Notes: generated by a model not told the origin, from the letters alone. 64,000 nucleotides of DNA from Planctomycetota bacterium (GCA_046290465.1 JBKAGP010000001.1:1664001-1728000), one strand, 5' to 3'. Positions 26,716 to 44,346 are shown, counted from the first letter of the stretch. Numbers and translations are program-made.

Positions 26716-27867
26716 GTGTTCCCCGCCCCCTCCGCCCGGCACCTCGCTTCGCAGCAGCCGCAGCTCGCCCGTTCGCTGCGGGAGCGCGGCCGCGAGGTCT
26801 GGCCGCTGCTGCGCCGCGACGCCGACCTCGGCCAGGTGGTCACCGTGCACCGCGAACGGCCCGATCGCCTTGCCGAGACGGCGCTCTGGCGCGCCGGCGA
26901 GCCGGTGTTCCTGCCGGGCGTGCTCGGCGACGTCGAGCACCGCGAACGCGACGCGATCGCCGCCTGCCTGCAGATGTTCGACCGGCTGCGCGCCGAACGC
27001 AGCGAGTTCCTCGACGAGCTCGAGGTGCGCCTGCACGACGACGACTGGCTGCGCTATGCGGGCAGCACCGTCGACCAGGACGACCCGCGCGAGGTCGAAC
27101 GGTGCTTCGTCGACGTCGAGATCGACGGCCAGGTGGTCGCCCAGGATCTGTGGGCCAAGCTCGCCTGGATCACCGAGGATCCGAGCGACAGCTCGCTGCG
27201 GGTGCGCTTCTCCAACGGCCTCGACCAGCTCGAGGAGTGGATGACGACCAGCGACCATACCGCCAGCCAGGTCGACCGGTTCGCGCTGCACGCGTTCCCC
27301 GAGTGCCGCGCGGTGCTGTCCTGCGCCCCGCTGCGCGAACGGCTGGACCGGCTGGTCGCGCAGCCGCACCGGCTGTCCGAGCGCATCGTCTACAACAACG
27401 CCCCCAACGGCGGCGCGGTGTTCCACCACGACGCCGAGCCGGGCCAGCTCGGGGTGGTGTTCTCGCAGCTCGAGGGCCGCACCGCGTGGTTCTCGCTGAG
27501 CAAGCGGCGGCTGGCGCGCCTGCTGGTGCAGGTCGGCTTCTGCCGCCGACGCGACGCGATGCAGGTGCTCGACGAGGCCTGCGACCCGGACCTGCTCGAG
27601 CTGATCAACCGCGACGAGGGCTTCGCCCGGCTGCTGGCGGCACACGGCGCGCTGTTCGTGCTGCGCGCCGGCGACGCGATCCTGCTGCCGTCGCACGGCG
27701 TCGACGACGTCGCCTGGCACAGCGTGCTGGCGATCGGCGACCGGCCGAGCCTGGCGCACTCGTACGGGCTGTTTCCGCGGGCCGACGACTACGACGTCGT
27801 CGGCGATCCCTGGCTCGGCGAGCGCGCCGCCGCTACGAAGGGCGTCCCAAGTACAATGTCACGATGA
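26716..27867 (+). CDS. Hypothetical protein with C-terminal JmjC/cupin-like Fe(II)/2OG oxygenase motifs
   Basis: FHHDAE (HxD), QLEGRTAW, LRAGDAILLP...WHSV (distal His). Start uncertain (GTG 26716). Confidence 0.65.
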   Translation: MFPAPSARHLASQQPQLARSLRERGREVWPLLRRDADLGQVVTVHRERPDRLAETALWRAGEPVFLPGVLGDVEHRERDAIAACLQMFDRLRAERSEFLDELEVRLHDDDWLRYAGSTVDQDDPREVERCFVDVEIDGQVVAQDLWAKLAWITEDPSDSSLRVRFSNGLDQLEEWMTTSDHTASQVDRFALHAFPECRAVLSCAPLRERLDRLVAQPHRLSERIVYNNAPNGGAVFHHDAEPGQLGVVFSQLEGRTAWFSLSKRRLARLLVQVGFCRRRDAMQVLDEACDPDLLELINRDEGFARLLAAHGALFVLRAGDAILLPSHGVDDVAWHSVLAIGDRPSLAHSYGLFPRADDYDVVGDPWLGERAAATKGVPSTMSR

Positions 27868-28745
27868 ACGACGGCCGCAGCAGCCTCGAACAGCACCTGC
27901 AGCTCTGGGCGGAGGCCTACGGGCCCGACCTGGCCGTGCCCAGAGGGCAGGCAGAGCCCAAGGGCCAGGTGGAGCCGCGACGGGCCGCCCCGCCCGCGGC
28001 CGAGGCTGCCGCCCCGCAGCCGGCGGCAGCAACCCCGGCGGCCGCAACCCCGGCCGCAGCAACCCCGGCCGCGCCGGCGCCGCCGCCCGGGCAGCCGTCC
28101 ACCGCCGCCCGACCTGCGCGCCCCGCCGAAGCAGCGCCGCAACCCGCTGCCGAAGAACAGGATGAAGCGGTAGCCGCGCTGCGCGCGCTGCGCTCCGAAG
28201 TGCTGCCGTGCACCAGGTGCAAGCTGCACATGGGTCGCCGCATGACGGTGTTCGGCGAAGGCAACCCGCACGCGCGGGTGATGTTCATCGGCGAGGCCCC
28301 CGGCGCCAAGGAGGACCAGTCGGGGCGCCCGTTCGTCGGCCCGGCCGGCCAGCTTCTCGACCGCATCATCGAGGGAGCCATGGGATTACGGCGACAGGAC
28401 GTGTTCATCGCCAACATCAACAAGTGCCGCCCGCCCAACAACCGCGCACCAGAGGCCGACGAGGTCGCGGCGTGCCTGCCGTTCTTGAAGCAGCAGGTCG
28501 AGATCGTCCGGCCGGAGGTGCTGGTGTGCCTGGGCCGCACCGCCGCGCAGAACCTGCTCGGCTCGACCGAGTCGACCACCGCGATGCGGCGCCGCCAGCA
28601 CGAGTACGCCGACACCCCGGTGATCGTGACCTGGCACCCGGCCTACCTGCTGCGCGAGCCGTCGCGCAAGCGGGAGACCTGGGAGGACATCAAGAAGGTC
28701 AACAAGCTGCTCGGTCTGCCAGAAGTGCCGCCCACCAAGGCGTAG
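27864..28745 (+). CDS. Uracil-DNA glycosylase family 4 with Ala/Pro-rich N-terminal linker
   Basis: [60 protein letters not shown]. Confidence 0.93.
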
Positions 28746-29133
28746 GCCGCCGCTGCCGGGCCGTTCGCCGGCAGGGCGAATCTCTCCGCAAACTCGGAGG
28801 GAAGGGCTTGTTGCAACCTTGACCGACCCATCGCAGGTCGATAGGGTCCGGCGTCCCTACGGCCTCTTTGCGTCCCGAGGAGGTCTGGGCTCACCCGGAG
28901 CAACGGGTCGCTTCTCTCTCCCCTCCCCGTCGTCTGTGGCATGCAGGACGGTCCGAGAACGGCGGCGCGCCAACCGAAGTGAGTGCTCTTTGCTCCGCTG
29001 GTTCCGGCCCGACGCTGCGCGCGCAGCCGAGTGCCGAACGCGTCCCGCGCCGCCCTCACGAACGCGCGGCTGCGCACCTTCGGAGCCACCAAAGCCCCCC
29101 TCTCCCCGATCGCCACTTTTGCAGGCATTCAGC

Positions 29134-31752
29134 ATGATCAAGGTTCAGACCCTGCGCTTGCGCGGCCTCTGTGCGTCCTCCCTGTTGGCCCTCGCCGCTT
29201 GCTCCGGCACGCCGACGGACTTCGTTGACGTCCAGACCGGCTCTTCCGAAGGCACCCCGCTGACGAAGACGACCACCCTCGACGACATCACCTACGGCGT
29301 CCAAGACCCGCAAGGCCAAGACCCGCAAGGGCGCGCCGCCCTCGTCAAGAAGGCGGTCGAGAACGCTCGCCGTTCGCTCGAGCTGCGCCTGTTCGAGGAC
29401 GCCCGCAACGAAGCCGCGTTCGCGCTCGAACTCGACTCGAACAACGCCGAGGCGCGCGACATCCTGCGTCGCTGCCGTCAGGTGCTCGGCGAGGAGACCA
29501 ACGCCGGCGACAACAGCTTCCGCAACCTGGTGATGACCGAGCGCATCAAGCAGGAACGGGAGCGCGCGCTGGTCAACAACGAGATCGCCCTCGGCAAGGC
29601 CGAGATGGACCTCGAGAACTACGGCCGCGCGATCGACCGCTTCGAGCGCGCCGTCACGGCCCTGCGCTTCTCGGCCTACGTGCAGCCCAACGACCCGCTT
29701 CGCACCGAAGCCGAGTCGCTGCTCGAGCAGGCTCGCCAGGCCAGCCGCAGCGCGCTGCAGCAGGCCGAGCAGGACGCCAAGGCCGCCAGTGAGGCCGAGC
29801 TCGCCCGCATCGCGCGCGACCGGGAGATCGCCCGCGAGCTGAGCGTCGAGCGCCTGCTGGAAGCCGCCAACGTCAAGTTCCAGAACGGCGAGTACGCCGA
29901 CTCGGTCAACCTGGTCGACCAGGCCCTGCGCCTCGACCCGATCAACCCGACGGCGATGGCGCTCCGCGACCTCGCCGACCGCGCGCGCCACAACGCGCAG
30001 ATGGACCTCAACCGCGAGCGCTGGCGCACCGAGTGGAACAAGACGTTCACCGAGCTGAAGCACAGCGCCGTGCCGCAGACCGAGACGGTCGTGTTCGACC
30101 CGTCGCGCTGGGCGGTCGTCAACCAGCGCAAGCCGGCCAGCTACGCGCAGGCCGAGTCGCTCGAGTCGCCGCAGAACCAGGCGGTGCAGAAGCTGCTGAA
30201 CGAGACCGTGCTCGAGCACAACTTCGCCAGCGCCACCGTCGAGGACTGGGCCAACTACTACGCCCAGGTCACCGGCGCGACGTTCTTCGTCAGCGAAGAC
30301 GTCAAGGGCATGGACGCCGAGACGACCACGCTCAACGAGTTCCGCCTGCCGCGCCGCTCGGTCGCGGGCGCGCTGAAGGCCATCCAGGCCACGACTGGCG
30401 TCGCCTACAAGATCAAGGACGGCCTGGTCATGCTGGTCACGCCGGAGAACGCGATCGGCAAGCTCGACCTGCAGCCGTTCAACGTCACCGAGCTGGTCTC
30501 GGGCGTGCAGAGCAAGCCGGGTCCCGACCTGCGCCTGAAGGTGCCGGGCGACGACGCGCCGCTGTTCCCCGAGGTCGATGAGGAGCCGCAGCCGTCGGTC
30601 GTCGACGACACCCGTCTGGTCGAGCTGCTGCAGGCGACGATCGCCCCCGACAAGTGGGAAGGCTCGCCGTTCACGATGAACTTCCAGGGCGGCGTGCTCT
30701 ACGTGCGCGCCGACCGCCCGACGCTCGAAGCCGTCGGCAAGCTGCTCAACGAGCTGCGCCGCCACGTCGGCATCCAGATCGACATCGAGTCGCGCTTCCT
30801 GAGCGTCGAGGACAGCTTCCTCGAGGACGTCGGCATCGACCTCCGCGGCCTGGGCAACCAGAGCGCGCAGGGCCTCGCCGGTCGCGGCCTCGAGAAGCAG
30901 GGCGACCGCTCGAACGCCGGCTTCGACGACTTCGGCCCCCGCCAGCAGCAGAACGCCGCGGTGCCCGGCATCGTCGGCACCGGCACCGAGCCGGGCATCT
31001 TCTTCGACGACGGCGAGGACGGCGACGCGATGGCCCGCGTCGAGAACCTGTTCAACTCGACGCTCGGCGGCCGCAACGGCGGCCTGACGAACGCCGGCGG
31101 CCTGTCGCTGCAATACGCCTTCCTCGACGACACCGAGGTCGAGGTCGTGCTGCGTGCGGTCAGCAAGCAGGAGCGTTCGGAGCAGATCGAGGCGCCGCGC
31201 CTGCTGGTGTTCAACAACACCCGCGCGTCGATGCACTTCCTGCGGAACATCAGCTACATCCGCGACTTCGAGGTCGAAATCGCGCAGGCGGCGGCGGTGG
31301 CCAACCCGGTCATCGGCACCGTGCACGACGGCGTCGCGCTGGACGTGCGCCCCGTCGTCGACAGCGACCTGAAGTTCATCACGATGGAGCTCCGCCCCAC
31401 CGTGATGGCGCTGCAGCTGCCGATCCCGACGTTCACGACGACGCTCGGCGTCGGCCAGCCGATCTCGATCCAGCTGCCGGAGGTCACCCTCCAGCGCGTC
31501 CGCACGACGGTCACCGTCCCGGACGGCAGCACGATGATGCTCGGCGGCATGCGCCTCGTGGAGCGCCAGAACCTGCGTTCGACGGTCCCGCTGCTCGGCA
31601 GCCTGCCGGGCCTCAGCTGGCTGTTCAGCCGCAACGGCACGTCGGTCCAGAACCGCAAGATGCTGATCCTGATCCGCAGCAAGATCGTGCTGATGGAAGA
31701 GCTCGAGCCGGATCCGGCGACCCTGCCGACCGACATCATCTCGATGCGCTAG
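29134..31752 (+). CDS. Secretin-family outer-membrane lipoprotein A with N-terminal TPR/coiled-coil region
   Basis: Lipobox LALAAC. N3-like segment (LYVRA...VGKLLNELRR), QIDIESRFL, APRLLVFNN, GVALDVRPVV, TTVTVPDGSTMMLGG, VPLLGSLP.LSWLF..K.LILIR: the secretin C-domain signature. Confidence 0.88.
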   Translation: MIKVQTLRLRGLCASSLLALAACSGTPTDFVDVQTGSSEGTPLTKTTTLDDITYGVQDPQGQDPQGRAALVKKAVENARRSLELRLFEDARNEAAFALELDSNNAEARDILRRCRQVLGEETNAGDNSFRNLVMTERIKQERERALVNNEIALGKAEMDLENYGRAIDRFERAVTALRFSAYVQPNDPLRTEAESLLEQARQASRSALQQAEQDAKAASEAELARIARDREIARELSVERLLEAANVKFQNGEYADSVNLVDQALRLDPINPTAMALRDLADRARHNAQMDLNRERWRTEWNKTFTELKHSAVPQTETVVFDPSRWAVVNQRKPASYAQAESLESPQNQAVQKLLNETVLEHNFASATVEDWANYYAQVTGATFFVSEDVKGMDAETTTLNEFRLPRRSVAGALKAIQATTGVAYKIKDGLVMLVTPENAIGKLDLQPFNVTELVSGVQSKPGPDLRLKVPGDDAPLFPEVDEEPQPSVVDDTRLVELLQATIAPDKWEGSPFTMNFQGGVLYVRADRPTLEAVGKLLNELRRHVGIQIDIESRFLSVEDSFLEDVGIDLRGLGNQSAQGLAGRGLEKQGDRSNAGFDDFGPRQQQNAAVPGIVGTGTEPGIFFDDGEDGDAMARVENLFNSTLGGRNGGLTNAGGLSLQYAFLDDTEVEVVLRAVSKQERSEQIEAPRLLVFNNTRASMHFLRNISYIRDFEVEIAQAAAVANPVIGTVHDGVALDVRPVVDSDLKFITMELRPTVMALQLPIPTFTTTLGVGQPISIQLPEVTLQRVRTTVTVPDGSTMMLGGMRLVERQNLRSTVPLLGSLPGLSWLFSRNGTSVQNRKMLILIRSKIVLMEELEPDPATLPTDIISMR

Positions 31753-31794
31753 GCAGCTGCATCACCGGCCGGTGGACCCACCAGCCAGAAGAAG

Positions 31795-31832
31795 ACGGCC
31801 GGCATCGCAAGATGCCGGCCGTTTCGGTTTTG
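31795..31832 (+). terminator. Intrinsic terminator after secretin A
   Basis: 12-bp perfect stem ACGGCCGGCATC-GCAA-GATGCCGGCCGT followed by TTCGGTTTT. Confidence 0.75.
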
Positions 31833-32102
31833 CGCGCATGCCGGCCCGGCGCCCTCCGACGCCCGCGACGTGCGCCGCGACCGCGGCGGCCCGCCCCTCC
31901 CCCGCCGACGCCGCCTTGGAACACATGAACCCATCGCTATCCTGCGCCGTTCCACCCCTCGGCGGAGTGCGGCTTTGGCCCCCGAACCCGCACTCTGATC
32001 GCGACTTCCGGTGCCGTCTCCCCTCGTCGGCACCCGTCCACCCATTTTCGGTTCCCGAATTCCCTGCAGCCCTTCTCTGCAGCCAACCATCGGAGTCTGT
32101 CT

Positions 32103-34985
32103 GTGATCAGCCTTCTCGCGCGCCTCGACGGCGCCAAGTTCGCGGCGCTCGCGCTTGCCATCGGCACGCTTTCGCCTGCCCTGCTCGCCCAGGATCAGCT
32201 GGGTCGCGAGATCAACTTCGTGCGTGCCCTCGCCAAGGACATGCGCTTCATCGAGCTGGCCAAGTCCGAGGCGGAGCGCCTCGCGACCGCGTTCCGCGGC
32301 GCCGGTGACCAGGACAAGATCGCGCAACTGTCGGTCGAGGTCGCCTACTACGGCGCCCGCTCGCGCAGCGACCGCAACCAGCAGCGCGCGCTGTTCAAGG
32401 AGACCGTCGACAAGTCGCAGGACCTGATCGACCGCTCGACGGACGCCGACGTCAAGCTGCAGGCGCAGTCGACGCTGGCCAACGCGACGCAGGACTTCGG
32501 CCAGTTCCTGATCGAGGAACTCGACATCGCGCGCACCGAGTCGCCGGAGCGCGTCGCCGAACTGCAGGCCGAGGCGATCGAGGTCCTGAAGGCCGGCAAG
32601 GCCGCCTGCAAGGACGTTCGCGCCGCGCTCGAGAGCCAGCGGGGCGACGACCCGCAGAAGGAGATCGAGTTCTTCCTGATGTGGATGAAGGAAGCCGTGC
32701 TGACGCGCGAGCAGGCCAAGGCCGACAAGGAGAACCGCAACGTGCTCGTCGACCGCGCCATCGAGGAGCTCGAAGAGATGGTGCTCGAAGCCGGCGAGGA
32801 GTCGGCGCTCGGCCTGCGCGGCCTGTTCGAGATCGCGCAGTGCTACGAGGTCAAGGGCGAGATGTCCGAGGCCATCGACTGGTACAGCAGCACCATCGAG
32901 TCGATCACGACCGCGCTGAGCGACCACGAGAAGGGCGAGCTGCAGCTGACCGGCGACATGCTGAACTTCCTGTTCGGCATGATGCAGGAGGTCTACGTGC
33001 GCGCCGGTGAGACGATGGCCCGCGAAGGCGCCGAGGGCACCGAGGAGCTGTTCACCAACTTCCGCAAGCACATTGCGCAGTTCGGCGAGAAGGGCGTCGA
33101 CCTGTTCGACGTGGTCTCGGAGAGCTACGGCCACCTGATGCTGCTCGCCGAGAGCCGCTGGAAGGCCGAGTCCGGCGACCCGCAGAAGGTGCAGGAAGCG
33201 CTCGCGATGACGCAGCGCATCAACGACAAGCACCCGGCCGACTACGTCGGCGTCAAGGCCAAGGCCGTGCTGGCCGACATCCTGGCGCTGCAGAAGGACC
33301 TGGTGTCGGGCTCGCTGCTGTTCGAGGTCGGCAAGGGCGAACTGCAGAAGAAGAACTACGAGGCCGCGGTCCAGAACCTGCGCGGCGCGATCGCCGCGTT
33401 GACCGCCGAGGAGAAGAAGACCCTCGGCATGGAAGCGCACCTGATGCTCGGCAACGCCTACCGCCGCACCGACCGCCAGCTCGAGGCGATCATCGCGCTG
33501 GTCGAGGGCGCCAAGCTCTACGGCGACAAGGCCGACCCGATCTCCAACGACGCCGGCGACGCGATCGACCGCGCGGTCTCGGCGCACAAGCGCGAGACCA
33601 AGGACGATCCGTTCTTCGCCAGCTTCTGGAGCGAGGCGATCAACGAGGCCGCCAAGATCAACACCGGCGGCGCCGACAAGGTCGCCTACAAGGAAGGCAC
33701 CAAGCTGTTCAACGAACGCAAGTGGGCCGAGGCCGCAGCGGAGTTCGCCAAGGTCACCTCCGACTACGTCTACTACGAGCAGGCCGCGGTGCGCGTCGCG
33801 CGCGCCTACGCGTCGGCCGGCGACTTCGCCAAGTCGCGCGAGGCGCTCGCCAAGTACCGCCAGTACGTCGCCGGCAACGAACTGCACGCCCGCGACACCG
33901 GCAAGCAGCAGGTCCGCAAGGCCGCGCTCGCGTCGGGCGCCTACAACGACGTGCAGATCGCCTACTACGAAGCGCGCGGCAACGACAAGTTCGGCATCGA
34001 GCGCGACCTGTCGAAGTACGGCGCCGCGGTCGACGCGGTGAACAACTTCCTCAGCAACTTCTCGGCCGACGGCGACGTCTACGTGCCGCAGGTGCTGGCC
34101 TTCCTCGGCCGCCTGCACATCGACACCGGCGCGCTCGACAAGGCCGAGCAGGCCTACACGCAGCTGAAGGGCAAGGACGGCACGCGCGCCGCGCGTCTGG
34201 CGACCGAGATCTTCAAGGAGTACCAGAACCAGGTGAAGGGCCTCGTCGCCGAGCTCGACAAGGGCATCGCCGCGGGCAAGACGGACCAGCAGCTGGCCGA
34301 CCAGAACCGCGAGATCGCGGAGGCCCGCCGCAAGCTGACCGCGCTCGGCACCGACTACATCAAGAGCTCGCCGGAGCCGCAGCTCGCGATCCTGGTCAAC
34401 ACGATGCTCAACTGGCAGCAGCTCGAGGAGTGGGAGCGCGTCGACGAGGTCGCCAAGAAGACCCTGGCGCTCTACGGCGACGTCAGCGACGAGGCTTCGA
34501 AGAACGTCGTCGACCAGCTGGTCCGCCCGATGGTCGGTGAGGCGCTGCTGCAGCAGCGTCGCTTCCAGGAGGCCTACGACATGCTGATCGCGGCCGAGAA
34601 GGCCAACCCGGCCCAGTGGGAGCTCAAGCGCCAGATCGCGCGTGCGCTCGGCGGCTGGTTCGAGTTCTCGAAGACGGGTGCCGCGGTTCGTGAGCCCGGC
34701 CTGGACCGTCCGATCGAGGCCTACATGAAGTACTACGGCGACCCCGAGAAGTCCTACCGCATCTGGGCGACGCGTCCGGACGTGAAGAAGTTCAGCCTCG
34801 AGTGGTACCGCTTCATGTGGGAGTCGTTCTGGTTCGCCAAGCAGGCCGGCAAGAAGGACAGCAGCTACGAGGACATCGCCGACAAGTTCTACCGCATCGC
34901 GCGGAGCACGAACGACTTCGCGACCCTGCTGACCTACGGCGCGGAAGGCAAGAAGCTGCACAGCTACTTCCAGACCAACCGCTAG
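32103..34985 (+). CDS. Large exported TPR-like alpha-helical protein (960 aa)
   Basis: Signal peptide ending ALLA-Q; helical repeats (GLFEIAQCY..GEMSEAIDWY; AYKEGTKLFNERKWAEAAAEF); strong codon bias. Confidence 0.8.
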   Translation: MISLLARLDGAKFAALALAIGTLSPALLAQDQLGREINFVRALAKDMRFIELAKSEAERLATAFRGAGDQDKIAQLSVEVAYYGARSRSDRNQQRALFKETVDKSQDLIDRSTDADVKLQAQSTLANATQDFGQFLIEELDIARTESPERVAELQAEAIEVLKAGKAACKDVRAALESQRGDDPQKEIEFFLMWMKEAVLTREQAKADKENRNVLVDRAIEELEEMVLEAGEESALGLRGLFEIAQCYEVKGEMSEAIDWYSSTIESITTALSDHEKGELQLTGDMLNFLFGMMQEVYVRAGETMAREGAEGTEELFTNFRKHIAQFGEKGVDLFDVVSESYGHLMLLAESRWKAESGDPQKVQEALAMTQRINDKHPADYVGVKAKAVLADILALQKDLVSGSLLFEVGKGELQKKNYEAAVQNLRGAIAALTAEEKKTLGMEAHLMLGNAYRRTDRQLEAIIALVEGAKLYGDKADPISNDAGDAIDRAVSAHKRETKDDPFFASFWSEAINEAAKINTGGADKVAYKEGTKLFNERKWAEAAAEFAKVTSDYVYYEQAAVRVARAYASAGDFAKSREALAKYRQYVAGNELHARDTGKQQVRKAALASGAYNDVQIAYYEARGNDKFGIERDLSKYGAAVDAVNNFLSNFSADGDVYVPQVLAFLGRLHIDTGALDKAEQAYTQLKGKDGTRAARLATEIFKEYQNQVKGLVAELDKGIAAGKTDQQLADQNREIAEARRKLTALGTDYIKSSPEPQLAILVNTMLNWQQLEEWERVDEVAKKTLALYGDVSDEASKNVVDQLVRPMVGEALLQQRRFQEAYDMLIAAEKANPAQWELKRQIARALGGWFEFSKTGAAVREPGLDRPIEAYMKYYGDPEKSYRIWATRPDVKKFSLEWYRFMWESFWFAKQAGKKDSSYEDIADKFYRIARSTNDFATLLTYGAEGKKLHSYFQTNR

Positions 34986-35021
34986 TCCCCCACCGCAACA
35001 CACATCCAAGGACTGACCACG

Positions 35022-36140
35022 ATGCGATTCCTCCCCCTGTTGTTGCCGGTGGCGCTGCTGCTGCCGGCCACCGCGACCGCCCAGAAGATCAACGACGTCG
35101 TCCTCAAGAAGGACGGCGCGCGGGTGCGCGGTCTCGAGATCACCGACTTCCTGCTCTCGGGCGTGCGCGGCAAGCGCGGCTCGGATGACTTCGAGCTGCC
35201 CGCGCACCTCGTCAAGGACATCGAGTGGAGCGACCTGCCCGAAGAGTTCACCGCCGGCAAGGGCGCGATGGGCCGCGGCGACTTCGCCGCCGCCGCGCAG
35301 TTCTTCGGCGCGGTGCAGAGCGACCGGCCGCTGGTGAAGGCCGACGCCGAGTTCTTCAAGATCAAGGCCGCCGTCGCCGGCATCGGCGCGGACAAGGGCG
35401 CCGCCGCCACCGCGGCGTCGCACATGAAGGACTGGATCAGCAGCAACGTGAACCACTGGCGCACGCCCGAGGCCCTGCTGCTGCAGGGTCGCGCCGAGCG
35501 CCTGGCCGGCACCGCCGGCGCGGCCACGACGACGCTGAAGGAACTCGACGACCGCGCGATCCGCGACGGCTTCGGCACGATCTGGAGCGCGCGCGCCAAG
35601 TACGAACTGGCCCTGACGCTGGTCGCCGACGGCAAGGCCGCCGAGGCCCGCACGCAGTTCAAGTCGGCCAGCTCGGCCGCCGACACGGCGCTCAGCACGA
35701 CCGATACCGACAAGCCGGAGCTCGAGAACCTGAAGACGCTCGCGCGCGTCGGCGAAGGCGAGACCTACCTCGTCGACAAGGACTTCAAGCAGGCGGCGGC
35801 GTTCTTCAAGAGCCTCGCCAACAGCAGCACGCCCGCGCTGAAGGCCGCCGCGGCCGCCGGCGAGGGCGAAGCGATCTTCCTCGACGCCGTCGCCAAGGAC
35901 GACGCCAACGGCCTGCGCCGCGCGCAGATGGCGCTGGCTCGCGCCAGCGTCTTCGACAGCACCAGCGGCGAGTCGAGCGCCAAGGCGAACTACTACCTCG
36001 GCCGCTGCCTGCTGGCGCTCGGCGCGCAGAAGGAGGGCGACTCGTTCAAGCAACGCGCCCAGCAGTACTTCGAGATCGTCTACACGTCGTACCCGTCGAC
36101 CCGCTGGGCCGGCCTGGCGAAGACCGAGTCGCAGAAGTAG
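35022..36140 (+). CDS. Exported TPR-like protein with N-terminal small beta domain
   Basis: Signal peptide ..ATA-Q; DVVLKKDGARVRG beta motif; TPRs (AKANYYLGRC; YPSTRWA, a YbgF/CpoB-like C-terminus). Confidence 0.8.
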   Translation: MRFLPLLLPVALLLPATATAQKINDVVLKKDGARVRGLEITDFLLSGVRGKRGSDDFELPAHLVKDIEWSDLPEEFTAGKGAMGRGDFAAAAQFFGAVQSDRPLVKADAEFFKIKAAVAGIGADKGAAATAASHMKDWISSNVNHWRTPEALLLQGRAERLAGTAGAATTTLKELDDRAIRDGFGTIWSARAKYELALTLVADGKAAEARTQFKSASSAADTALSTTDTDKPELENLKTLARVGEGETYLVDKDFKQAAAFFKSLANSSTPALKAAAAAGEGEAIFLDAVAKDDANGLRRAQMALARASVFDSTSGESSAKANYYLGRCLLALGAQKEGDSFKQRAQQYFEIVYTSYPSTRWAGLAKTESQK

Positions 36141-36337
36141 TCGTCGCTCTGCCGCTGGGCCAACCCGCTGGGCCAACCCGCCTGGCAGGGCGCCACGAGG
36201 CCGTTCCCGGCGCAGATTTGTTTGCGCCGGGGGCTTCCCAGCGGCCCCCCGGTCGAGCAAACTTCCTCCCCCCTCTTTTTCGAATCCTTCGAAGCCCCTC
36301 TCCCCCGCCTCGCGCCCGTTGTGAGGCCGCAGTTCCC

Positions 36338-37060
36338 ATGATCCTCAAGCACGTGCCGTCCGTTCGGTTCCTCGCCGTTTCCGCGCCCCTTCTGTTCGCC
36401 AGCTCGCTGTTCGCCCAGGAAGGGGATGGCGGCGCGACGGAGAAGCCGGGCTTCCTCGAAGACGTCATCGACAACGCCGGCGTCATCGGTGGCCTCATCG
36501 TCCTCATGTCGATCATCGCGCTGGCGCTGATCATCGAGAACTTCATGTCGATCAAGCGCGAGAAGATCGCGCCGCCCGACCTGCTCGACGAGATCGAGGC
36601 GCTGTTCGACGGCGAGAACTTCCAGGACGCGGTCGAGCTGTGCGAGCAGGAGAAGAACTACATGACCAACGTCGTCGGCGCTGGTCTGTCGAAGCTCGGC
36701 CACGAGTTCGAGACCATGCAGACGTCGATCCGCGAGATGCAGACCGAGGAGTCGGTCAAGCTCTTCCAGAAGATCGGCTGGCTGTCGCTGATCTCGGCCA
36801 TCGCGCCGATGATGGGTCTGTTCGGCACGGTGACGGGCATGTTCGACACGTTCGGCACGATCGCGGCGTCGGGCGGCAACGTCTCGCCGGCGAAGCTCGC
36901 AGGCGGCATTAAGGGCGCGCTCGTCACGACGATGCTCGGCCTGATGGTCGCCATCCCGGTCGGCATCGGCTTCTTCGTGATGCGCAACCGCGTCATCCGC
37001 ACCTCGACGGAAGTCAACGCCATCACCGAGGACCTGTTCGAGCGCTTCCGCTCGAAGTAG
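36338..37060 (+). CDS. exbB: MotA/TolQ/ExbB proton-channel protein
   Basis: Signal-like N-terminus, TM1, then IAPMMGLFGTVTGM and GIKGALVTTMLGLMVAIP. Confidence 0.92.
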   Translation: MILKHVPSVRFLAVSAPLLFASSLFAQEGDGGATEKPGFLEDVIDNAGVIGGLIVLMSIIALALIIENFMSIKREKIAPPDLLDEIEALFDGENFQDAVELCEQEKNYMTNVVGAGLSKLGHEFETMQTSIREMQTEESVKLFQKIGWLSLISAIAPMMGLFGTVTGMFDTFGTIAASGGNVSPAKLAGGIKGALVTTMLGLMVAIPVGIGFFVMRNRVIRTSTEVNAITEDLFERFRSK

Positions 37061-37184
37061 TCCCCCGGAACAGGCCGATCCGAGCCGCACCGAACCTCCC
37101 GCACGGGAACCACGTTCGTAGCGGCCTGGATCTCACCCCGCATCGCGTCGCCCCACGGCGGCGCACAACCGGAGGAACCGCCGA

Positions 37185-37727
37185 GTGAACATCGAAAAAA
37201 TCGTTCAGGAGGAGCTCGACATGGACATGACGCCCATGATCGATTGCGTCTTCCTGCTGATGATCTTCTTCGTGCTGGTCATCGACCTCAGCCAGAAGAA
37301 CCTCGAGGACCTGATCCTGCCGCGTGCAGAGTTCCAGGAGCCTGACGACGAGCCGCCCGAGAACCGCCCGATCCTGAACGTGCTGCAGAACGGCACGGTC
37401 ATCTATCAGGGCAAGGTCTACTACGACGCGCTCAAGGACGGCAAGAACTACGCCCCCATCAAGAAGCTGCTCGCGGAGATCCGCCGTGTCGGCATCACCA
37501 ACAAGACGCTGCACCTCGTCCCGAAGGACGTCGGCGGGGTCGACGCGATGGTGATGGACGAGCCGGTGCTGATCCGTGCCGACAAGTGGACCGAATGGCA
37601 CTACGTCGGCGAGATCATGAAGCAGTGCTCGCAGCCCGACATCGCGTTCTGGAAGGTGCAGCTTGCCCTTTCGGAAGAGGACAAGGAAACCGGCGAGAAG
37701 AACACCAGCCTGACGAGGGGGCAGTAA
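37185..37727 (+). CDS. exbD: ExbD/TolR family protein 1
   Basis: DMTPMIDCVFLLMIFF with the essential TM Asp; periplasmic VLIRADK; GGAGG SD, GTG start. Confidence 0.9.
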   Translation: MNIEKIVQEELDMDMTPMIDCVFLLMIFFVLVIDLSQKNLEDLILPRAEFQEPDDEPPENRPILNVLQNGTVIYQGKVYYDALKDGKNYAPIKKLLAEIRRVGITNKTLHLVPKDVGGVDAMVMDEPVLIRADKWTEWHYVGEIMKQCSQPDIAFWKVQLALSEEDKETGEKNTSLTRGQ

Positions 37728-37730
37728 GCC

Positions 37731-38279
37731 ATGAGCGCAATCGACGACGCCCAGGAAGAAGCCAAGGCCGACATGACGCCGATGATCGACGTCGTGTTCC
37801 TGATGATCATCTTCTTCATCTGCATCGAGTTCAAAGTCCTCGAGTCGAAGCTCGACGCGTTCCTGCCGACGGACAAGGGCAGCCAGAACACCGTCGTGGA
37901 GCCCGAAGAGCAGCTCGCCATCAAGATCCACGTCGAGAGCAACGGCTCCAAGGACTTCAGCAAGTACGGTGGTCAGGGCATCAACCCGGGAACGGGTCGC
38001 CCGAACCGCTTCGTGCTGAACGGCCACAAGGTGAAGTGGGAGATCGGCCCGAAGCCGGTCTACTCGCTCGCCGAGGTCCAGAAGGAGCTGAAGCGGATCG
38101 CCGACGATCCGGCCAGCCAGATCCCGGACAAGAAGACCGGTGGCACCAAGCTGATGAGCTGTGTCATCGAGGCCTACCCGGGCACCTACTACGAAGACGT
38201 CGCCAAGACCAACGACGCCGCCAACAACGCCGGCTTCACGGAAGTCAACTTCGGCGGCGGCCTCGGCCCGGGCAAGTAG
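37731..38279 (+). CDS. exbD: ExbD/TolR family protein 2
   Basis: DMTPMIDVVFLMIIFF with the essential Asp; C-terminal VIEA..GTYYEDV..AGFTEVNF. Confidence 0.88.
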   Translation: MSAIDDAQEEAKADMTPMIDVVFLMIIFFICIEFKVLESKLDAFLPTDKGSQNTVVEPEEQLAIKIHVESNGSKDFSKYGGQGINPGTGRPNRFVLNGHKVKWEIGPKPVYSLAEVQKELKRIADDPASQIPDKKTGGTKLMSCVIEAYPGTYYEDVAKTNDAANNAGFTEVNFGGGLGPGK

Positions 38280-38405
38280 GGCAGCAGACGCGGGCAACTC
38301 CAGCCCGCTTCTCCAGCCAGCTCCTCTTGCAAGCTGGCCGCTGCACTCTCCCGCTGCACTCTCCCGCTGGCCGCAGCCCGCCCCCCGCGGGCAGCTCGGC
38401 GCCCC

Positions 38406-38444
38406 GAACAGGCCCGCACCCCGGTGCGGGCCTGTTCTGGTTTT
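38406..38444 (+). terminator. Intrinsic terminator after exbD2
   Basis: 14-bp stem GAACAGGCCCGCAC-CCCG-GTGCGGGCCTGTTC followed by TGGTTTT. Confidence 0.75.
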
Positions 38445-38825
38445 GCAGTGCCTCGCGGCCGCGCCCACCCCACCCCGGTCGGGTTCTCGAGTACTGCCCC
38501 GGCATTGCGACACTGCCGGCCGCAACCACGCCCCCATTGGCTCCACAACCCACTGCCACATCGCGAAAAACCCCTGGCACGACCTCTCGGGTGCCGCTAG
38601 CGTTTGGCCCCTTGCGACCGGCTCTCCCTACGTTTGCCGGCCGCAACAACGTCCGCTCCGTGTCGTCGCAAGTCCCTCTCGATCGGTCGCATGTGAAACG
38701 TCCCCTCCACATGCGGCGATGCCTCCACATCGTGTTCGTCCACCGATCGCTTGTCGCCGTCTCGGAAATCGGGCCCATCCCCAATGGGTCCAATCGCAAT
38801 CTGGTTACGCACCGAGCGTGAAACG

Positions 38826-41420
38826 ATGGCTCTCGAACATCCGCGCCTTCTCGCTGCTTCGCTGACGGTCGCCTTCCTGGCGGCCTCCTGCTCCACCCCG
38901 AACGACGGCTCCAACGAGTCGTCGAACCCGAACGTCGCCAACGAGTCCAACTCGAACGGCGGCTCGGCGATGACGGGCGAGCCTTCCTCCAACCAAGACC
39001 CGCAGTCCCCCGGCCGGCAAGGCCAGGGCACGGTCGCCGACCAGCGCAAGGCCGTGCTGGTTGCCAACTGGCTCGACAATGCGCGCAAGCTGCGCATGCA
39101 GGGCGAGCTGCAGGCGGCCAAGCTCGAGCTGCTGAAGGCCAAGGACCTGGCGCCCACCAACGAGCAGGTGCGCAGCGAACTGGCTGCGGTGCAGGCCGAG
39201 CTCGGCGAGCCGGTCGGCGTCATCACCACCTACGGTGACGAGGTCATGCGCCTGCAGAAGATCGCCGAGGAGCGCGCCCGCGCCACGGTGCAGAACCAGC
39301 TGCAGACCGCCCAGCAGCAGATGGCGGACAAGAACTTCGCCGGCGCGATCGAAGAGCTGCGCCGCGCGTCGCTCGCGATCGAGATCAAGGACGACGTCGA
39401 CTGGATGGGCCTGCCCAGCCAGGTCGCCGCGGCCAAGGCCGAGGCCGAGCGCCTCTACGACGAGCAGCAACGCTCCAGCCAGGCGGCCGAGAACGCCCAG
39501 CTGGCCGAGCAGCTGCGCCGCGAGTTCGAGCGCAACCAGGCGCGCAAGCGCGCGCAGGTCGACGGCCTGATCCAGCAGTCGCAGGTTGCCTTCGAGGCGC
39601 GCCAGTTCGAGCGTTCGCAGGACTTCGCCCAGCGCGCGCTGGAGATGGACCCGTCGAACTCGCTGGCCTACGAGATGCTCAACGCCGCGACCAAGGCGGC
39701 GCGTGACTCGGCCAACGACGACTACTGGCGCCGTCGCGCCCTCGAGATCCGGCAGATGCTCGAGGCGCACGAGGAGCTCAAGACGCCCCAGACCGACATC
39801 CTGGTCATGGACGACGAGGTCTGGGAGCGCGCCAACCGGCGCAGCACCCGCCGCGGCGACAAGCGCCTGCTCAGCCCCGAGGACGCGGCGCTGACGCAGC
39901 TGGTCGACACCGCGCAGGTCGGCCGTCTCACCTACACGGACGAGACCGGCGCCTACCTCGACGTGCTCAAGAACCTGAGCCTGATCACGGGCGTGCAGAT
40001 CCTGACCACGCCGGAAGCGCGCACCGTCATCGAGGACGAGAGCCTGACCGTCGTCATCGAGCTGGCCTCGTCGATGACGCTCAAGAACTTCCTCAACCAC
40101 ATGGTCTCGCGCAGCGAGAACCTCGCCTGGACGATCCGCGAAGGCGTGGTCGTGGTCGGCGACAAGTCGCAGGCCGCCGGCACGCTGATCACCGAGATCT
40201 ACCCGGTCAAGGACCTGATCTTCCAGCAGACGCAGTTCCTGCCGCCGACCATCCGCGACATCCCGACCGAGGACGCCGGCGATGTCCCGCGCACCGGCGG
40301 TGAGGGCGACGATCCGATCGCCGGCATCGAGCTGACCGACCTGGTCGACACGCTGATGAACGCCACGGACCCGACCTACTGGGAGACCGAAGGCGTCGAG
40401 ATCCGCCCGGAGGACTCGGGCCTGCTGTCGGTGACGGCGAGCCCGGAGATGCAGGACAAGCTGGTCAAGGTGCTGGCGAACATGCGTCGCTTCCAGACGC
40501 CGATCGTCACCATCGACTCGAAGTTCCTGACCATCTCCCGCAACTTCCTGCAGGAGATCGGCATCGACATCCGCGGCCTCGGCGGCTCGGGCAACAAGGG
40601 CGACACCGTGTCGCTCGACGACGTCACCAACGGCCTGGTCAACAACGCTTCGCGCGGCCAGGACAACGGCGGCACCGGCGACCCGGCGGCCAACCCGCTG
40701 GCCGGCGCGTTCTTCAACGACGGCAGCGACGGCGACATCCGCGCCCGCACCGAGAACTACTTCGTCAACGACCTGGGTCGCGTGCTCTCCCCCACCGGTG
40801 GCCTGACCGCCGGCTGGACGCTGATCGACGACACCCAGCTCAACCTGATCCTGCGCGCCGTCGAGAAGCGCCAGGACGGCGAGGTCGTCAACAGCCAGAT
40901 CCTGTCGGTCGTCAACCGCGGCCGCGGCCACGTCGCCGTCATCAACCAGACGGCCTACGTGCGCGACTTCGACGTCGAAGTGGCGCAGGCGGCGTTCATC
41001 GCCGACCCGAAGGTCGACGTGATCCAGGACGGCATCGTGCTGGACGTGCAGCCGATCATCCAGAACGACCGGAAGTACATCACGCTCAACCTCAACCCGA
41101 CGGTTGCCGAACTGCAGCGCCCGATCCCGACGTTCACGACGTCGCTCGCCGGCTCGACGCTGCCGGTCACGGTCCAGCTGCCGAACCTCACGGTCACGAA
41201 CTTCTCGACGACCGTGAAGGTCCCGGACGGCGGCACGGTGCTGCTGGGCGGCCTGCGTCAGGTGCTCACCAAGGAGCGCCGCGCCGAGGTCCCGCTGCTG
41301 TCGCGCCTGCCGCTGATCTCGTTCCTGTTCAAGCAGGAGGGCTCGGCCGACGAGAACCGCAGCCTGATGGTGATGGTGCGCGCGCAGATCACCGACATCG
41401 TCGAAGAGAGCGAGCGCTAG
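38826..41420 (+). CDS. Secretin-family outer-membrane lipoprotein B, paralog of 29134-31752
   Basis: Lipobox FLAASC; coiled-coil/TPR N-terminus; IVTIDSKFL, AYVRDFDVEVAQAA, GIVLDVQP, TTVKVPDGGTVLLGG, VPLLSRLPLISFLF..LMVMVRA. Confidence 0.88.
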   Translation: MALEHPRLLAASLTVAFLAASCSTPNDGSNESSNPNVANESNSNGGSAMTGEPSSNQDPQSPGRQGQGTVADQRKAVLVANWLDNARKLRMQGELQAAKLELLKAKDLAPTNEQVRSELAAVQAELGEPVGVITTYGDEVMRLQKIAEERARATVQNQLQTAQQQMADKNFAGAIEELRRASLAIEIKDDVDWMGLPSQVAAAKAEAERLYDEQQRSSQAAENAQLAEQLRREFERNQARKRAQVDGLIQQSQVAFEARQFERSQDFAQRALEMDPSNSLAYEMLNAATKAARDSANDDYWRRRALEIRQMLEAHEELKTPQTDILVMDDEVWERANRRSTRRGDKRLLSPEDAALTQLVDTAQVGRLTYTDETGAYLDVLKNLSLITGVQILTTPEARTVIEDESLTVVIELASSMTLKNFLNHMVSRSENLAWTIREGVVVVGDKSQAAGTLITEIYPVKDLIFQQTQFLPPTIRDIPTEDAGDVPRTGGEGDDPIAGIELTDLVDTLMNATDPTYWETEGVEIRPEDSGLLSVTASPEMQDKLVKVLANMRRFQTPIVTIDSKFLTISRNFLQEIGIDIRGLGGSGNKGDTVSLDDVTNGLVNNASRGQDNGGTGDPAANPLAGAFFNDGSDGDIRARTENYFVNDLGRVLSPTGGLTAGWTLIDDTQLNLILRAVEKRQDGEVVNSQILSVVNRGRGHVAVINQTAYVRDFDVEVAQAAFIADPKVDVIQDGIVLDVQPIIQNDRKYITLNLNPTVAELQRPIPTFTTSLAGSTLPVTVQLPNLTVTNFSTTVKVPDGGTVLLGGLRQVLTKERRAEVPLLSRLPLISFLFKQEGSADENRSLMVMVRAQITDIVEESER

Positions 41421-41461
41421 TCGCCGACCAGACCCGCCGCCGGAGGACGACCGGCGGCGAG

Positions 41462-41506: not shown

Positions 41507-41611
41507 GCGCGCTTGCTGCGCGCGCGCACCTTGCCAGCGCGCCCGTCTTGCGCCACAACTAACCGGCGGAGTCTCTCCCCCACCGCGCCCGGACTTGGCG
41601 AGCCCACCACC

Positions 41612-42331
41612 ATGACCAAGCCCCTCGACGCCATCTTCTTCGACATCGACGACACGCTGTTCTCGACGACCGTGTTCGCCGACAAGGCGCGTCGCAACGC
41701 CGTCGACGCGATGATCCGCGCCGGTCTGCAGGCCGACCGCAAGGACGCGATGCGCGAGTTGGAGGACGTGATCGCCGAGTTCTCGAGCAACTACGGCGGC
41801 CACTTCGACAAGGTGCTGGATCGCCTCGGCAAGGAGTCGCACGAGGGCCACAACCGGGCCGTCATCGTGGCCGCCGGCGTGGTCGCCTACCACGGCACCA
41901 AGGAGAGCGAGCTGAAGGTCTACGACGACGTCTACGCGACGCTGAAGTGGCTCGCCGACAAGCCAATCGTGCGCGGCATCATCTCGGCCGGCATCACGAT
42001 CAAGCAGGCCGAGAAGCTCGTGCGCCTCGACGTGCTCGAGTTCGTCACGCCGTCGGCGATCTTCTTCACCGACCAGGTCGGCTTCAGCAAGCCCAACCAC
42101 AAGCTCTACAAGCGCGCGCTGCAGCCGTTCGGGCTCGACCCGTCGCGCTGCATCTACGTCGGCGACAACCCGACGCACGACATCGATCCCTGCAACGAGC
42201 TCGGCTGGACCACCGTGCGCATCCGCCGCAGCGGCCGCTACGCGCACGTCGACGGCCAGACCGAGGCCGACCACGAGATCCGCGACTTCCTCGAACTGCG
42301 CCGCCTGCTCGAGACCGAGTACGGGCTGTAG
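41612..42331 (+). CDS. HAD-superfamily hydrolase, subfamily IA
   Basis: Motif I FFDIDDTL, motif II GIISAG, motif III SKP, motif IV YVGDNPTHDI. Confidence 0.9.
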   Translation: MTKPLDAIFFDIDDTLFSTTVFADKARRNAVDAMIRAGLQADRKDAMRELEDVIAEFSSNYGGHFDKVLDRLGKESHEGHNRAVIVAAGVVAYHGTKESELKVYDDVYATLKWLADKPIVRGIISAGITIKQAEKLVRLDVLEFVTPSAIFFTDQVGFSKPNHKLYKRALQPFGLDPSRCIYVGDNPTHDIDPCNELGWTTVRIRRSGRYAHVDGQTEADHEIRDFLELRRLLETEYGL

Positions 42332-44343: not shown

Positions 44344-44346
44344 GCG

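Follow-up and report, generated by a model that had tools for sequence, protein, structure and literature searches.

A planctomycete gene cluster with an ExbB–ExbD–ExbD motor and TPR proteins between two lipoprotein secretins

The window analyzed here is a 64,000-nucleotide stretch (C1:1664001-1728000) of the complete genome of a marine planctomycete, with a GC content of ~70%. Between positions 29134 and 41420 it carries seven co-oriented genes on the + strand, in the order secretin A, TPR960, p372, ExbB, ExbD1, ExbD2, and secretin B (Table 1). The seven-gene cluster is confirmed: every gene named in a preliminary description of this DNA was found, and the strong codon bias attributed to them appears as GC3 values of 0.89-0.96 across all seven. 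That gene list was one short, having missed an eighth co-oriented gene that encodes a HAD-family hydrolase.

Table 1. Features of the locus and its flanks, in window coordinates
Feature	Position	Strand	Identifying evidence
Family-4 uracil-DNA glycosylase	27864..28745	+	PF03167, 143.8 bits
Secretin A	29134..31752	+	PF00263, lipobox LALAAC
Hairpin 1	31795..31822	+	12-bp GC-rich stem, then TTTCGGTTTTG
TPR960	32103..34985	+	TPR_16, TPR_2, TPR_19, TPR_8
p372	35022..36140	+	AF2 model, TPR superhelix; resembles CpoB/YbgF
ExbB/TolQ-like	36338..37060	+	PF01618
ExbD1 (TolR-like), 180 aa	37185..37727	+	PF02472, TM Asp
ExbD2 (TolR-like), 182 aa	37731..38279	+	PF02472, TM Asp
Hairpin 2	38406..38437	+	14-bp stem, then CTGGTTTTG
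Secretin B	38826..41420	+	PF00263, lipoprotein signal ending AASC
HAD-family hydrolase	41612..42331	+	PF00702 and PF13419

The two secretins are full-length paralogs with 30% identity. Both are lipoprotein precursors (872 aa for secretin A, 864 aa for secretin B) with a common architecture, in which a helical/TPR region at the N terminus is followed by N-domains and, at the C terminus, the secretin domain. The true start of secretin A is the Met ahead of its lipobox, in agreement with the start assigned earlier. Against PF00263 (cut-off 27.5 bits), secretin B scores 82.9 bits and secretin A 85.1 bits, the latter match spanning residues 781-957 of the longer ORF; in a genome-wide scan with the same family, the pair reaches 89.7 and 88, and five canonical copies reach 132-149. 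In an AF2 model of secretin B (889-aa ORF numbering), residues 95-343 are helical, residues 376-490 and 528-596 form alpha/beta N-domains, and residues 710-881 form a barrel; an Asp/Gly-rich insert at 597-708 is conserved and modeled with low confidence. Foldseek matches of secretin B are BfpB, InvG, GspD, and PilQ, with PilF for the TPR part, and its atlas neighbors include Verrucomicrobiota TPR-secretin clusters.

Equivalog models for PilQ, GspD, and MshL give the secretins 56-107 bits against cut-offs of 250-351. GspD (TIGR02517) scores are 71 and 56 bits for secretins A and B (cut-off 351), and PilQ (TIGR02515) scores are 76 and 63 bits (cut-off 284). The best NCBIfam matches of secretin A are MshL (107 bits) and the Amuc_1098 family (81 bits), both far under their cut-offs. 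Only one NCBIfam model, Amuc_1098 (NF042912), also covers the N-terminal half of secretin A (297-818, 81 bits); secretins A and B score 80.9 and 51.9 bits against it, with a cut-off of 750. The preliminary description had asked whether the secretins belong with canonical T2SS/T4P clusters; a tree sets secretins A and B apart, as a clade that separates from the five canonical secretins of the genome with SH-aLRT 99, and the secretin A and secretin B subtrees mirror each other. The pair is an anciently duplicated, separate clade, not copies of the canonical T2SS/T4P secretins of this genome. Of 301 Planctomycetota genomes sampled, 206 have a secretin-B-like gene. Five small genomes (2.0-2.9 Mb) retain the secretin pair in addition to 3-4 canonical secretins. 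All five have T2SSE matches (5-12 each), so that they offer no case of the secretin pair without T2SSE ATPases and do not discriminate.

Both TPR proteins are exported. TPR960 (960 aa) has a signal peptide ending in LLAQ and matches several TPR families, and its orthologs occupy the corresponding position in relatives. For p372 (372 aa), Pfam gives no match and CpoB/YbgF (TIGR02795) a weak one (34 bits, cut-off 90). Its AF2 model (mean pLDDT 90.6) has a five-stranded beta domain at the N terminus (25-68) followed by a superhelix of TPRs (74-371), so the TPR label given to it earlier is correct by fold and not by Pfam. Foldseek matches of p372 are TPR superhelices, including LGN and consensus TPR proteins; it also resembles 9hmf_K, a Campylobacter motor scaffold, which is a periplasmic TPR scaffold of a flagellar stator. 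Relatives of p372 fall into 440 representative clusters at E<=1e-30.

ExbB scores 86.2 bits against PF01618 and begins with a signal-like segment; its best NCBIfam match is TolQ (77 bits, cut-off 221), and its equivalog score is 52 bits against cut-offs of 135-206. ExbD1 and ExbD2 score 55.4 and 52.8 bits against PF02472, with a TolR equivalog score of 26 against a cut-off of 127. All 13 sequences aligned for each ExbD paralog have the TM Asp within the motif TPMID, in line with the earlier observation that both proteins keep this essential residue. PF01618 and PF02472 matches above cut-off, together with the conserved ExbD TM Asp, place the proteins in the 5:2 motor family. As an ortholog marker, ExbB was rejected: its syntenic orthologs drop to 33-37% identity, a range that overlaps paralogs.

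The arrangement recurs across Planctomycetota. Of 69 related loci whose upstream flank extends 3.5 kb or more, 67 have ExbB-ExbD1-ExbD2 just upstream of secretin B, on one strand; of 62 whose upstream flank extends 9.9 kb or more, 58 have secretin A together with the motor. The arrangement is kept in 17/20 order-level loci. The motor sits between both secretins in 10 of the 11 loci from ten other families, a layout that most lineages share even where protein identity falls to 30-35%. In genomes G077, G169, and G124, in which the block is broken, secretin A still lies 5-6 kb from ExbB-ExbD. Unlinked secretins and exbBDD-TPR blocks in relatives had been named as the observation that would overturn the preliminary description; linkage in 67/69, 17/20, and 10/11 loci is mostly the opposite outcome.

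Exceptions fall on both sides of the pairing. In G025, G033, and G034 the two secretins are adjacent and the motor is not within 20 kb; G025 carries a TPR-TPR-ExbB-ExbD-ExbD cassette on a different contig. No secretin lies within 17-20 kb of the motor cassette in G047, G136, or G086. Family f13 has p372-like proteins in 11/15 genomes and secretin-B-like proteins in 0/15 (E<=1e-40), and G082, a member of that family, has a TPR-ExbB-ExbD-ExbD cassette with no secretin nearby; the motor cassette is therefore not dependent on these secretins. The converse pattern in families f34 (p372 in 0/10, secretin B in 10/10) and f21 (0/15 and 12/15) may be a sensitivity problem, and mismatched presence of p372 and secretin B is otherwise uninformative in both directions because of TPR divergence, paralogous cassettes, and fixed thresholds. 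Because the unrelated uracil-DNA glycosylase and HAD flanks are equally conserved, frozen gene order and not function may account for part of the synteny.

Clusters in other families carry additional genes. A PilM-like gene of the Amuc_1101 family lies upstream of secretin A in loci L144, L147, and L019, a neighborhood that points to pilus-type ancestry, and a gene for a sulfatase-family TPR lipoprotein lies between ExbD2 and secretin B. The present genome contains no ortholog or remnant of the sulfatase-TPR gene and, when queried with the PilM-like proteins of relatives, no Amuc_1101-like PilM; its sole PilM-like match (C1:6093101) stands beside a canonical secretin.

On the 5′ side of secretin A are the uracil-DNA glycosylase, directly upstream here and likewise in L148, L149, and L018, and a protein of no assigned family. 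On the 3′ side, the HAD hydrolase gene follows secretin B at a distance of no more than 1.5 kb in 66 of the 68 loci that have 1 kb or more of flank, and its product has no signal peptide. Both the hydrolase and the glycosylase are probably not machine parts. Two minus-strand readings were rejected: the ORF dn324 (41417-42391) is an antisense shadow of the HAD gene, and the N-terminal third of a long TPR ORF (~26800-27759) gives way to a plus-strand gene. A BY-kinase-like ATPase is encoded near the cluster on the opposite strand in this family, and BY-kinase/MamK-like neighbors are conserved within the family only.

The two terminator-like hairpins noted earlier near 31795 and 38406 are both present. 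The one after secretin A and the one after ExbD2 are each likely intrinsic terminators, which suggests three transcription units; terminator-like sites are not in excess across the region (11 found, 9.1 +/- 3.5 expected from shuffles). The gap between ExbD2 and secretin B is a 547-bp spacer with the hairpin and otherwise no ORF, and in 27000-43000 no Rfam family reached its gathering score. Parts of secretin A, exbB, exbD1-exbD2, and secretin B are represented among RNA-library contigs from three studies. These contigs come from mixed strains (95-99% identity), give neither strand nor transcript ends, and are uninformative for uncovered bins; the support they lend is weak because DNA carry-over is possible.

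Genome-wide profile matches for TonB, TonB-dependent receptors, pilins, and GspE-type ATPases all fall outside the window, as the preliminary description had reported. The window is free of T2SSE, T2SSF, and N_methyl matches, of which the genome has 13, 12, and 18 (prepilin), respectively, elsewhere, and of TonB_C and TonB-dependent receptors, with 2 TonB_C and 4 receptor-barrel matches elsewhere. TolB_N scores over cut-off in 0 of 11 genomes, this complete genome included. A separate complete TonB locus lies at C1:5631482-5637439, and another ExbB-ExbD pair, with a better-scoring ExbD, lies at C1:627076-627955. By count alone, the five canonical secretins would suffice for the approximately six platform-gene sites of the genome. 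The locus has no TonB-, TolA-, or vWA-type transducer to carry force across the periplasm, an observation against mechanical coupling of motor and secretins; the window likewise encodes no alternative energizer or partner, an observation in favor of it.

The literature searched (supplements aside) contains no paper on a secretin–ExbB/ExbD system. The earlier characterization of the machine as new has to be qualified: the TPR-motor cassette and PVC TPR-secretins are already published (PMC12204202 and PMC4960237, each available in part). The 2025 report describes, in the portion available, a PVC-wide cassette made up of a gene for a TPR protein, one resembling tolQ, and two resembling tolR (PMC12204202). 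The consecutive p372, ExbB, ExbD1, and ExbD2 genes match its core order of a TPR protein, a TolQ-like protein, and two different TolR-like proteins with the proton-binding Asp. That cassette has a vWA/SHLS-type transducer downstream, whereas here secretin B follows ExbD2 and the VWA family is absent from the Pfam matches of the locus genes; the word "secretin" does not occur in that report.

Among classical envelope systems, the Ton system has MotA_ExbB and ExbD Pfam domains in common with the locus, as well as the essential Asp of ExbD, but the window has neither TonB nor a TonB-dependent receptor, which sets the locus outside that system. For the Tol-Pal system, the best NCBIfam matches are TolQ, TolR, and CpoB, all below their cut-offs; there is no TolA at the locus and no TolB_N in the genome, and the locus is likewise not assigned to Tol-Pal. 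With the T4aP/T2SS secretins and liposecretins (PilQ/PilF, RcpA/TadD, BfpB, MshL), secretins A and B share the secretin domain, the N-domains, and a lipoprotein signal, which we take to be a trait of the liposecretin class. They differ in having the pilotin-like TPR fused to the secretin and in the conserved Asp/Gly-rich insert, and the window has no ATPase, platform protein, or pilin and no adjacent pilMNOP.

To our knowledge, the Glt machinery has no secretin, and the window ORFs scanned with general profiles include no Glt outer-membrane barrel and no TonB-like GltG/J. In the Myxococcus gliding motor AglRQS, a single TolQ-like subunit and a pair of TolR-like subunits are combined with exported TPR proteins (PMC3169522, available in part). 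The earlier comparison with this motor is a layout analogy only, because no Glt-type or TonB-like partner appeared among the window ORFs scanned.

The nearest architectural counterpart of the secretins is Amuc_1098 of Akkermansia muciniphila, likewise a long PVC-type secretin with an N-terminal TPR domain; the resemblance is real, and scores far under the 750-bit cut-off leave family membership unsupported. Compared with the Akkermansia locus MUL2 (Amuc_1099-1102), the window has two secretins, an embedded motor, and no PilM-like (Amuc_1101) gene. MUL1 presumably contains ExbB/ExbD-like genes, a listing not found in the searched literature. In the available portions of the reports, MUL1 and MUL2 are required for mucin uptake (PMC12418764, PMC13174399, PMC12570417). 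The mucin utilization loci, to which pili and a complex of periplasmic proteins are attributed, are required for intracellular accumulation of mucin products (PMC12418764, PMC13174399), and the TPR-secretin Amuc_1098, adjacent to MUL2, is the most abundant outer-membrane protein in Akkermansia (PMC4960237).

Whether the seven genes form one conserved Planctomycetota envelope apparatus, with the motor working on the secretins via the TPR proteins, is in our judgment evenly balanced. This coupled reading is partly supported, in that the linkage backs it: from linkage we infer a PMF motor that would be coupled through TPR scaffolds to a secretin pore, and we infer likewise the physical contacts, the 5:2 stoichiometry, the transport direction, and the substrate. 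The cluster may be a previously undescribed means of driving the transport of large molecules; so far, only gene order speaks for this. In such an apparatus, an inner-membrane ExbB pentamer around a heteromeric ExbD1/ExbD2 pair would constitute a proton-driven 5:2-type motor; TPR960 and the CpoB-like p372, always encoded directly before exbB, would serve as periplasmic scaffold or adaptor; and the two paralogous lipoprotein secretins, each with its own pilotin-like TPR domain, would provide the outer-membrane pore or pores. The motor would act on the secretin through the TPR proteins, for example by opening a gate or pulling a substrate, and would take the place that an ATPase-driven pilus or pseudopilus has in known secretin machines. 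The likeliest task would be transport of large polymers, probably glycans, through the outer membrane; import is slightly favored over export. The most specific version is the core of a long-sought planctomycete polymer-uptake machine, in which a secretin pore, possibly of both paralogs, has its gate worked by the TonB-less ExbB-ExbD1-ExbD2 motor via periplasmic TPR adaptors, so that whole polymers enter the periplasm; we offer it tentatively and regard it as doubtful. Crateriform pits occur on planctomycete surfaces. That this cluster is their molecular basis is speculation, drawn partly from the available portion of PMC11131199.

Three other accounts bear on the same observations. The cluster could hold two independent systems that are neighbors by history, with pilus-like secretins (PilM-linked and Akkermansia MUL2-like) whose remaining parts lie elsewhere and a TPR-ExbB-ExbD-ExbD cassette that is a general PVC energizer for another output. 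Just as syntenic flanking housekeeping genes, hairpin terminators between the units, modules that are split in the genomes noted above (G025, G033, G034, G047, G136, and G086), a cassette without these secretins in G082, the PilM-like gene upstream of secretin A in other families, and the T2SSE and prepilin-type matches elsewhere in the genome all fit this account. We nevertheless consider it unlikely: the motor stays between the secretins in most lineages even at the lowest identities, secretin A remains with the motor in the three broken-block genomes, the only PilM-like match here adjoins a canonical secretin, and the canonical secretins suffice by count for the platform-gene sites.

A Tol-Pal-like role in envelope maintenance, in which the motor and the CpoB-like TPR proteins tether or constrict the outer membrane via the secretin lipoproteins, replacing TolA-TolB-Pal and transporting nothing, would explain the TolQ, TolR, and CpoB/YbgF matches (all below cut-offs), the missing TolB_N, and retention in 2-Mb genomes, as a housekeeping function would predict. 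This role is quite unlikely, in that secretins form pores and are not known to act as tethers, the locus genes encode no peptidoglycan-binding OmpA/Pal-type domain, and the ExbB-ExbD pair elsewhere in the genome, with its better ExbD scores, could itself be a Tol-like motor. The same coupled apparatus might instead work outwards, in PMF-driven export of polymers or proteins or in surface motility, for which the AglRQS/Glt and type 9 GldLM motors are models. Known secretin systems all export or extrude, and the subunit layout is that of the Myxococcus gliding motor (PMC3169522, in part), but the Akkermansia loci, the only experimentally studied relatives, are tied to uptake in the available text (PMC12418764, PMC13174399). 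The nearby BY-kinase-like ATPase would suit outward work, but such neighbors are conserved within the family only, and no Glt-type or TonB-like partner appeared among the scanned window ORFs; we judge this direction very unlikely.

All characterized secretin machines known to us (type II and III secretion, type IV pili, Tad, and filamentous phage) use cytoplasmic ATPases, and all characterized ExbBD/TolQR motors known to us act via TonB-, TolA-, or Glt-type transducers. If the parts described here cooperate, they would represent a new way to energize an outer-membrane pore, with a transducer-less motor between two dedicated secretins; if the polymer-uptake reading is true, this would be the first secretin run on proton-motive force and not by an ATPase-driven filament. 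Members of the Planctomycetota have an important part in degrading complex glycans of marine and fresh waters. Only four TonB-dependent receptor matches occur in this genome. The window offers a minimal, seven-gene version of the cluster in a complete genome, without the PilM-like and sulfatase-family TPR lipoprotein genes of other families, which helps delimit the conserved core and makes the cluster a short, testable parts list.

Gene order in the cluster—secretin A, a 960-aa TPR protein (TPR960), a 372-aa TPR protein (p372), ExbB, ExbD1, ExbD2, and secretin B—is conserved across the phylum to a degree far exceeding chance. Genes were called by codon-position G+C; long spurious ORFs are frequent because the window has a G+C content of ~70%. 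The seven co-oriented genes of the preliminary description were recovered (GC3 0.89–0.96), with the same start for secretin A (29134). By Pfam, the two outermost genes encode secretin domains (85.1 bits for secretin A and 82.9 for secretin B; cut-off 27.5), TPR960 matches several TPR families, the fourth gene encodes a MotA_ExbB domain (86.2 bits), and the next two encode ExbD domains (55.4 bits for ExbD1 and 52.8 for ExbD2). N-terminal signals are of lipoprotein type on both secretins, and TPR960 and p372 carry signal peptides. The transmembrane Asp ascribed to both ExbD proteins is present in a TPMID motif, invariant in 13/13 aligned sequences of each paralog. The two hairpins reported earlier are also there, followed on the plus strand by T-rich tails, and would divide the cluster into three putative transcription units.

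A Pfam search of p372 gave no match, and its match to CpoB/YbgF is weak (34 bits; cut-off 90). In its AlphaFold2 model (mean pLDDT 90.6), a TPR superhelix comes after a beta domain of five strands, and Foldseek returned TPR proteins, one of them a chain of the periplasmic scaffold in the Campylobacter flagellar motor.

The flanking genes correct the preliminary description: A family-4 uracil-DNA glycosylase gene lies directly 5′ of secretin A, and a HAD-family hydrolase gene follows secretin B on the same strand (table below). Two long minus-strand ORFs were rejected as antisense shadows, one of the HAD gene and one of a real plus-strand gene. Their translations give significant tblastn matches in relatives even so, a trap in high-GC genomes. 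The window also holds a minus-strand trio encoding an actin-like protein of the MamK family (414 bits; cut-off 400), a coiled-coil protein of 264 aa, and a P-loop ATPase resembling BY-kinases (122 bits against eps_fam; cut-off 108), kept 3′ of the HAD gene in many same-family loci. Elsewhere, two large ORFs join regions 2 and 4 of ECF sigma factors to CarboxypepD_reg and Ig-like domains as putative fusions, and a DUF2058 gene adjoins a small PilZ-domain gene.

Features of the window and of loci from relatives (L-numbers; coordinates within each locus)
Feature	Location	Strand	Remark
Seven-gene cluster	29134-41420	plus	secretin A to secretin B
Uracil-DNA glycosylase gene	27864-28745		family 4
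HAD-family hydrolase gene	41612-42331	plus	3′ of secretin B
Long ORF	41417-42391	minus	rejected; shadow of HAD gene
Long ORF	26800-27759	minus	rejected; shadow of plus-strand gene
Asp/Gly-rich insert	about 40540-40875		in secretin B
MamK/coiled-coil/BY-kinase-like trio	42430-45117	minus	three genes
Sigma-factor fusion ORF	5561-8938	minus	putative
Sigma-factor fusion ORF	17829-20621	plus	putative
DUF2058 and PilZ-domain genes	14036-14973	minus	adjoining
Sulfatase-family TPR lipoprotein	L114:10854-12767		relative
Sulfatase-family TPR lipoprotein	L117:10902-12869		relative
PilM-like and second gene	L144:5936-8630		relative
PilM-like and second gene	L147:5954-8574		relative
PilM-like and second gene	L019:15957-17810		relative

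All 41 relatives have secretin-B-like genes, as do 206 of the 301 genomes in a phylum-wide sample (E ≤ 1e-40), mostly with two matches each. The preliminary description had named linkage in relatives as its own test, and the linkage held: in 17 of 20 order-level loci, ExbB-ExbD1-ExbD2 lies 5′ of secretin B and is co-oriented with it, with secretin A further 5′ in 16 of those 17 and a contig end before that position in the other (L032). Both secretins flank the motor in 10 of 11 loci from ten other families, loci picked for having both secretin matches on one contig; two further genomes are accounted for by contig ends. Among 80 loci from a genome collection, the motor is 5′ of secretin B in 67 of the 69 with at least 3.5 kb upstream, and secretin A plus motor are present in 58 of the 62 with at least 9.9 kb, counts that are not independent because these loci partly overlap other genomes counted and are close kin of one another. 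One of the 80 (L034; secretin B 88% identical) comes from a MAG whose record names a gammaproteobacterial genus; since the others are Planctomycetota or unclassified, this contig is probably mis-binned.

Departures from this order also occur. In the remaining three of the 20 order-level loci (G033, G025, and G034), the two secretins are adjacent, with no motor within the 20 kb fetched. Five more distant secretin-B matches have no motor within 10 kb; of the genomes concerned, three have their best ExbB match 5–6 kb from the secretin-A type. Three other genomes have the motor cassette alone, with no secretin in 17–20 kb. Five genomes of 2.0–2.9 Mb keep the long, low-scoring secretin pair (9–10 kb apart in four) together with 3–4 canonical secretins.

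Secretins A and B share 30% identity from end to end (E 2e-97) and are thus paralogs with one architecture. Of the seven secretins in the complete 6.59-Mb genome, five canonical ones score 132–149 bits, against 88–90 for secretins A and B. In a tree of 55 sequences—a quick search with long outgroup branches—the A and B types jointly stand apart from the five canonical copies (SH-aLRT 99); the A sequences make up a single clade (support 80), and a branch with support 79 sets the B sequences to one side. The A and B subtrees mirror each other, a pattern pointing to a single ancient duplication after which the two types diverged together. The secretin B model has a helical/TPR region predicted with confidence, then a pair of alpha/beta N-domains, a low-confidence conserved Asp/Gly-rich stretch, and the secretin barrel. 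Foldseek matched it to secretins of all classes, liposecretin BfpB ranking first, and matched its TPR part to the pilotin PilF; PDB sequence matches of the secretins cover the C-terminal barrel only. NCBIfam hits for both—MshL, PilQ, GspD, and the Akkermansia Amuc_1098 family—each fall far under the curated cut-off. The Asp/Gly-rich insert (residues 597–708 of the 889-aa secretin B ORF), between the last N-domain and the barrel, is common to secretin A and has many invariant residues (e.g., an FFxDGxDGD motif); it may serve in metal binding or as a gate.

Relatives extend the parts list. Between ExbD2 and secretin B, many other families have a 640–655-aa lipoprotein that combines a sulfatase-family domain with C-terminal TPRs; Thr (motif TLPSH) stands where we take a Cys or Ser nucleophile to be usual, and this genome has no ortholog of the protein. 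Directly 5′ of secretin A, some families have a PilM-like gene of the Amuc_1101 family together with another gene (314–334 aa, no known family). No such PilM-like gene is present in the window, and the genome's only PilM is canonical and adjoins a canonical secretin. With the sulfatase-TPR and PilM-like genes missing, the window represents the minimal seven-gene form. Seven loci (L116, L113, L121, L125, L135, L141, and L142) have three or four extra ExbD-like transmembrane segments each after the two ExbD genes; these may correspond to the "transpore helix" proteins, likewise ExbD-like, of PMC12204202.

At least 14 metagenome runs, marine and host-associated, contain near-identical DNA. Four RNA libraries from three studies yielded assembled contigs, which are no proof of transcription, over parts of secretin A, exbB, exbD1-exbD2, and secretin B; one stretch, nearly identical, spans the exbD1/exbD2 junction.

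Conserved order is weaker proof of joint function here than it looks, because the whole block is unusually stable: The uracil-DNA glycosylase and HAD hydrolase genes, without evident envelope role, are conserved flanks also across distant families, the latter ≤1.5 kb from secretin B in 66 of 68 loci. The modules are also separable, as G025 illustrates, with a TPR(1120 aa)-TPR(438 aa)-ExbB-ExbD-ExbD cassette on one contig and a PilM-like-secretin A-secretin B locus on another. In profile searches, 140 of the 301 genomes yielded p372 relatives, frequently two apiece, among them 11 of 15 genomes of a family without a secretin-B-like gene at the threshold used; one complete genome of that family encodes a large protein, a p372-like protein, ExbB, ExbD, and ExbD, then a tRNA synthetase. 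The TPR-motor cassette is thus a module in its own right.

The preliminary description reported no secretion ATPase, pilin, or TonB parts in the window, and indeed none of the genome's 13 T2SSE, 12 T2SSF, 18 prepilin-type, 2 TonB_C, or 4 TonB-dependent-receptor matches lies there. The motor core resembles the PVC TPR-tolQ-tolR-tolR cassette, which has a vWA-type transducer in PMC12204202, whereas none follows ExbD2 in the window. A rival reading gives the cluster a Tol-like envelope role, and the absence of TolB_N matches from this genome and from ten relatives keeps that reading in play. Membership tests did not place the cluster in Tol-Pal or Ton, with GspD or PilQ, in the Amuc_1098 family, or in the complete vWA cassette; they placed it only in the broad Pfam families and with the cassette's TPR-tolQ-tolR-tolR core.

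Among secretins that have been studied, the nearest is Akkermansia Amuc_1098, a 907-aa TPR-plus-secretin protein described in PMC4960237 as that organism's most abundant outer-membrane protein. It adjoins the mucin utilization locus MUL2, which carries PilM-like and pilin-like genes. Intracellular accumulation of mucin products requires MUL genes (PMC13174399 and PMC12418764), and PMC12570417 terms mul1A a mucin transport gene. Full-text literature searches found no paper linking a secretin with ExbB/ExbD. We put at about even the chance that the cluster encodes one envelope apparatus, probably for polymer transport, in which the ExbB-ExbD1-ExbD2 motor, without a transducer, would act through TPR adaptors on a dedicated secretin pair. 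Relative to published knowledge, the cluster is a known PVC motor cassette newly combined with PVC-type TPR-secretins.
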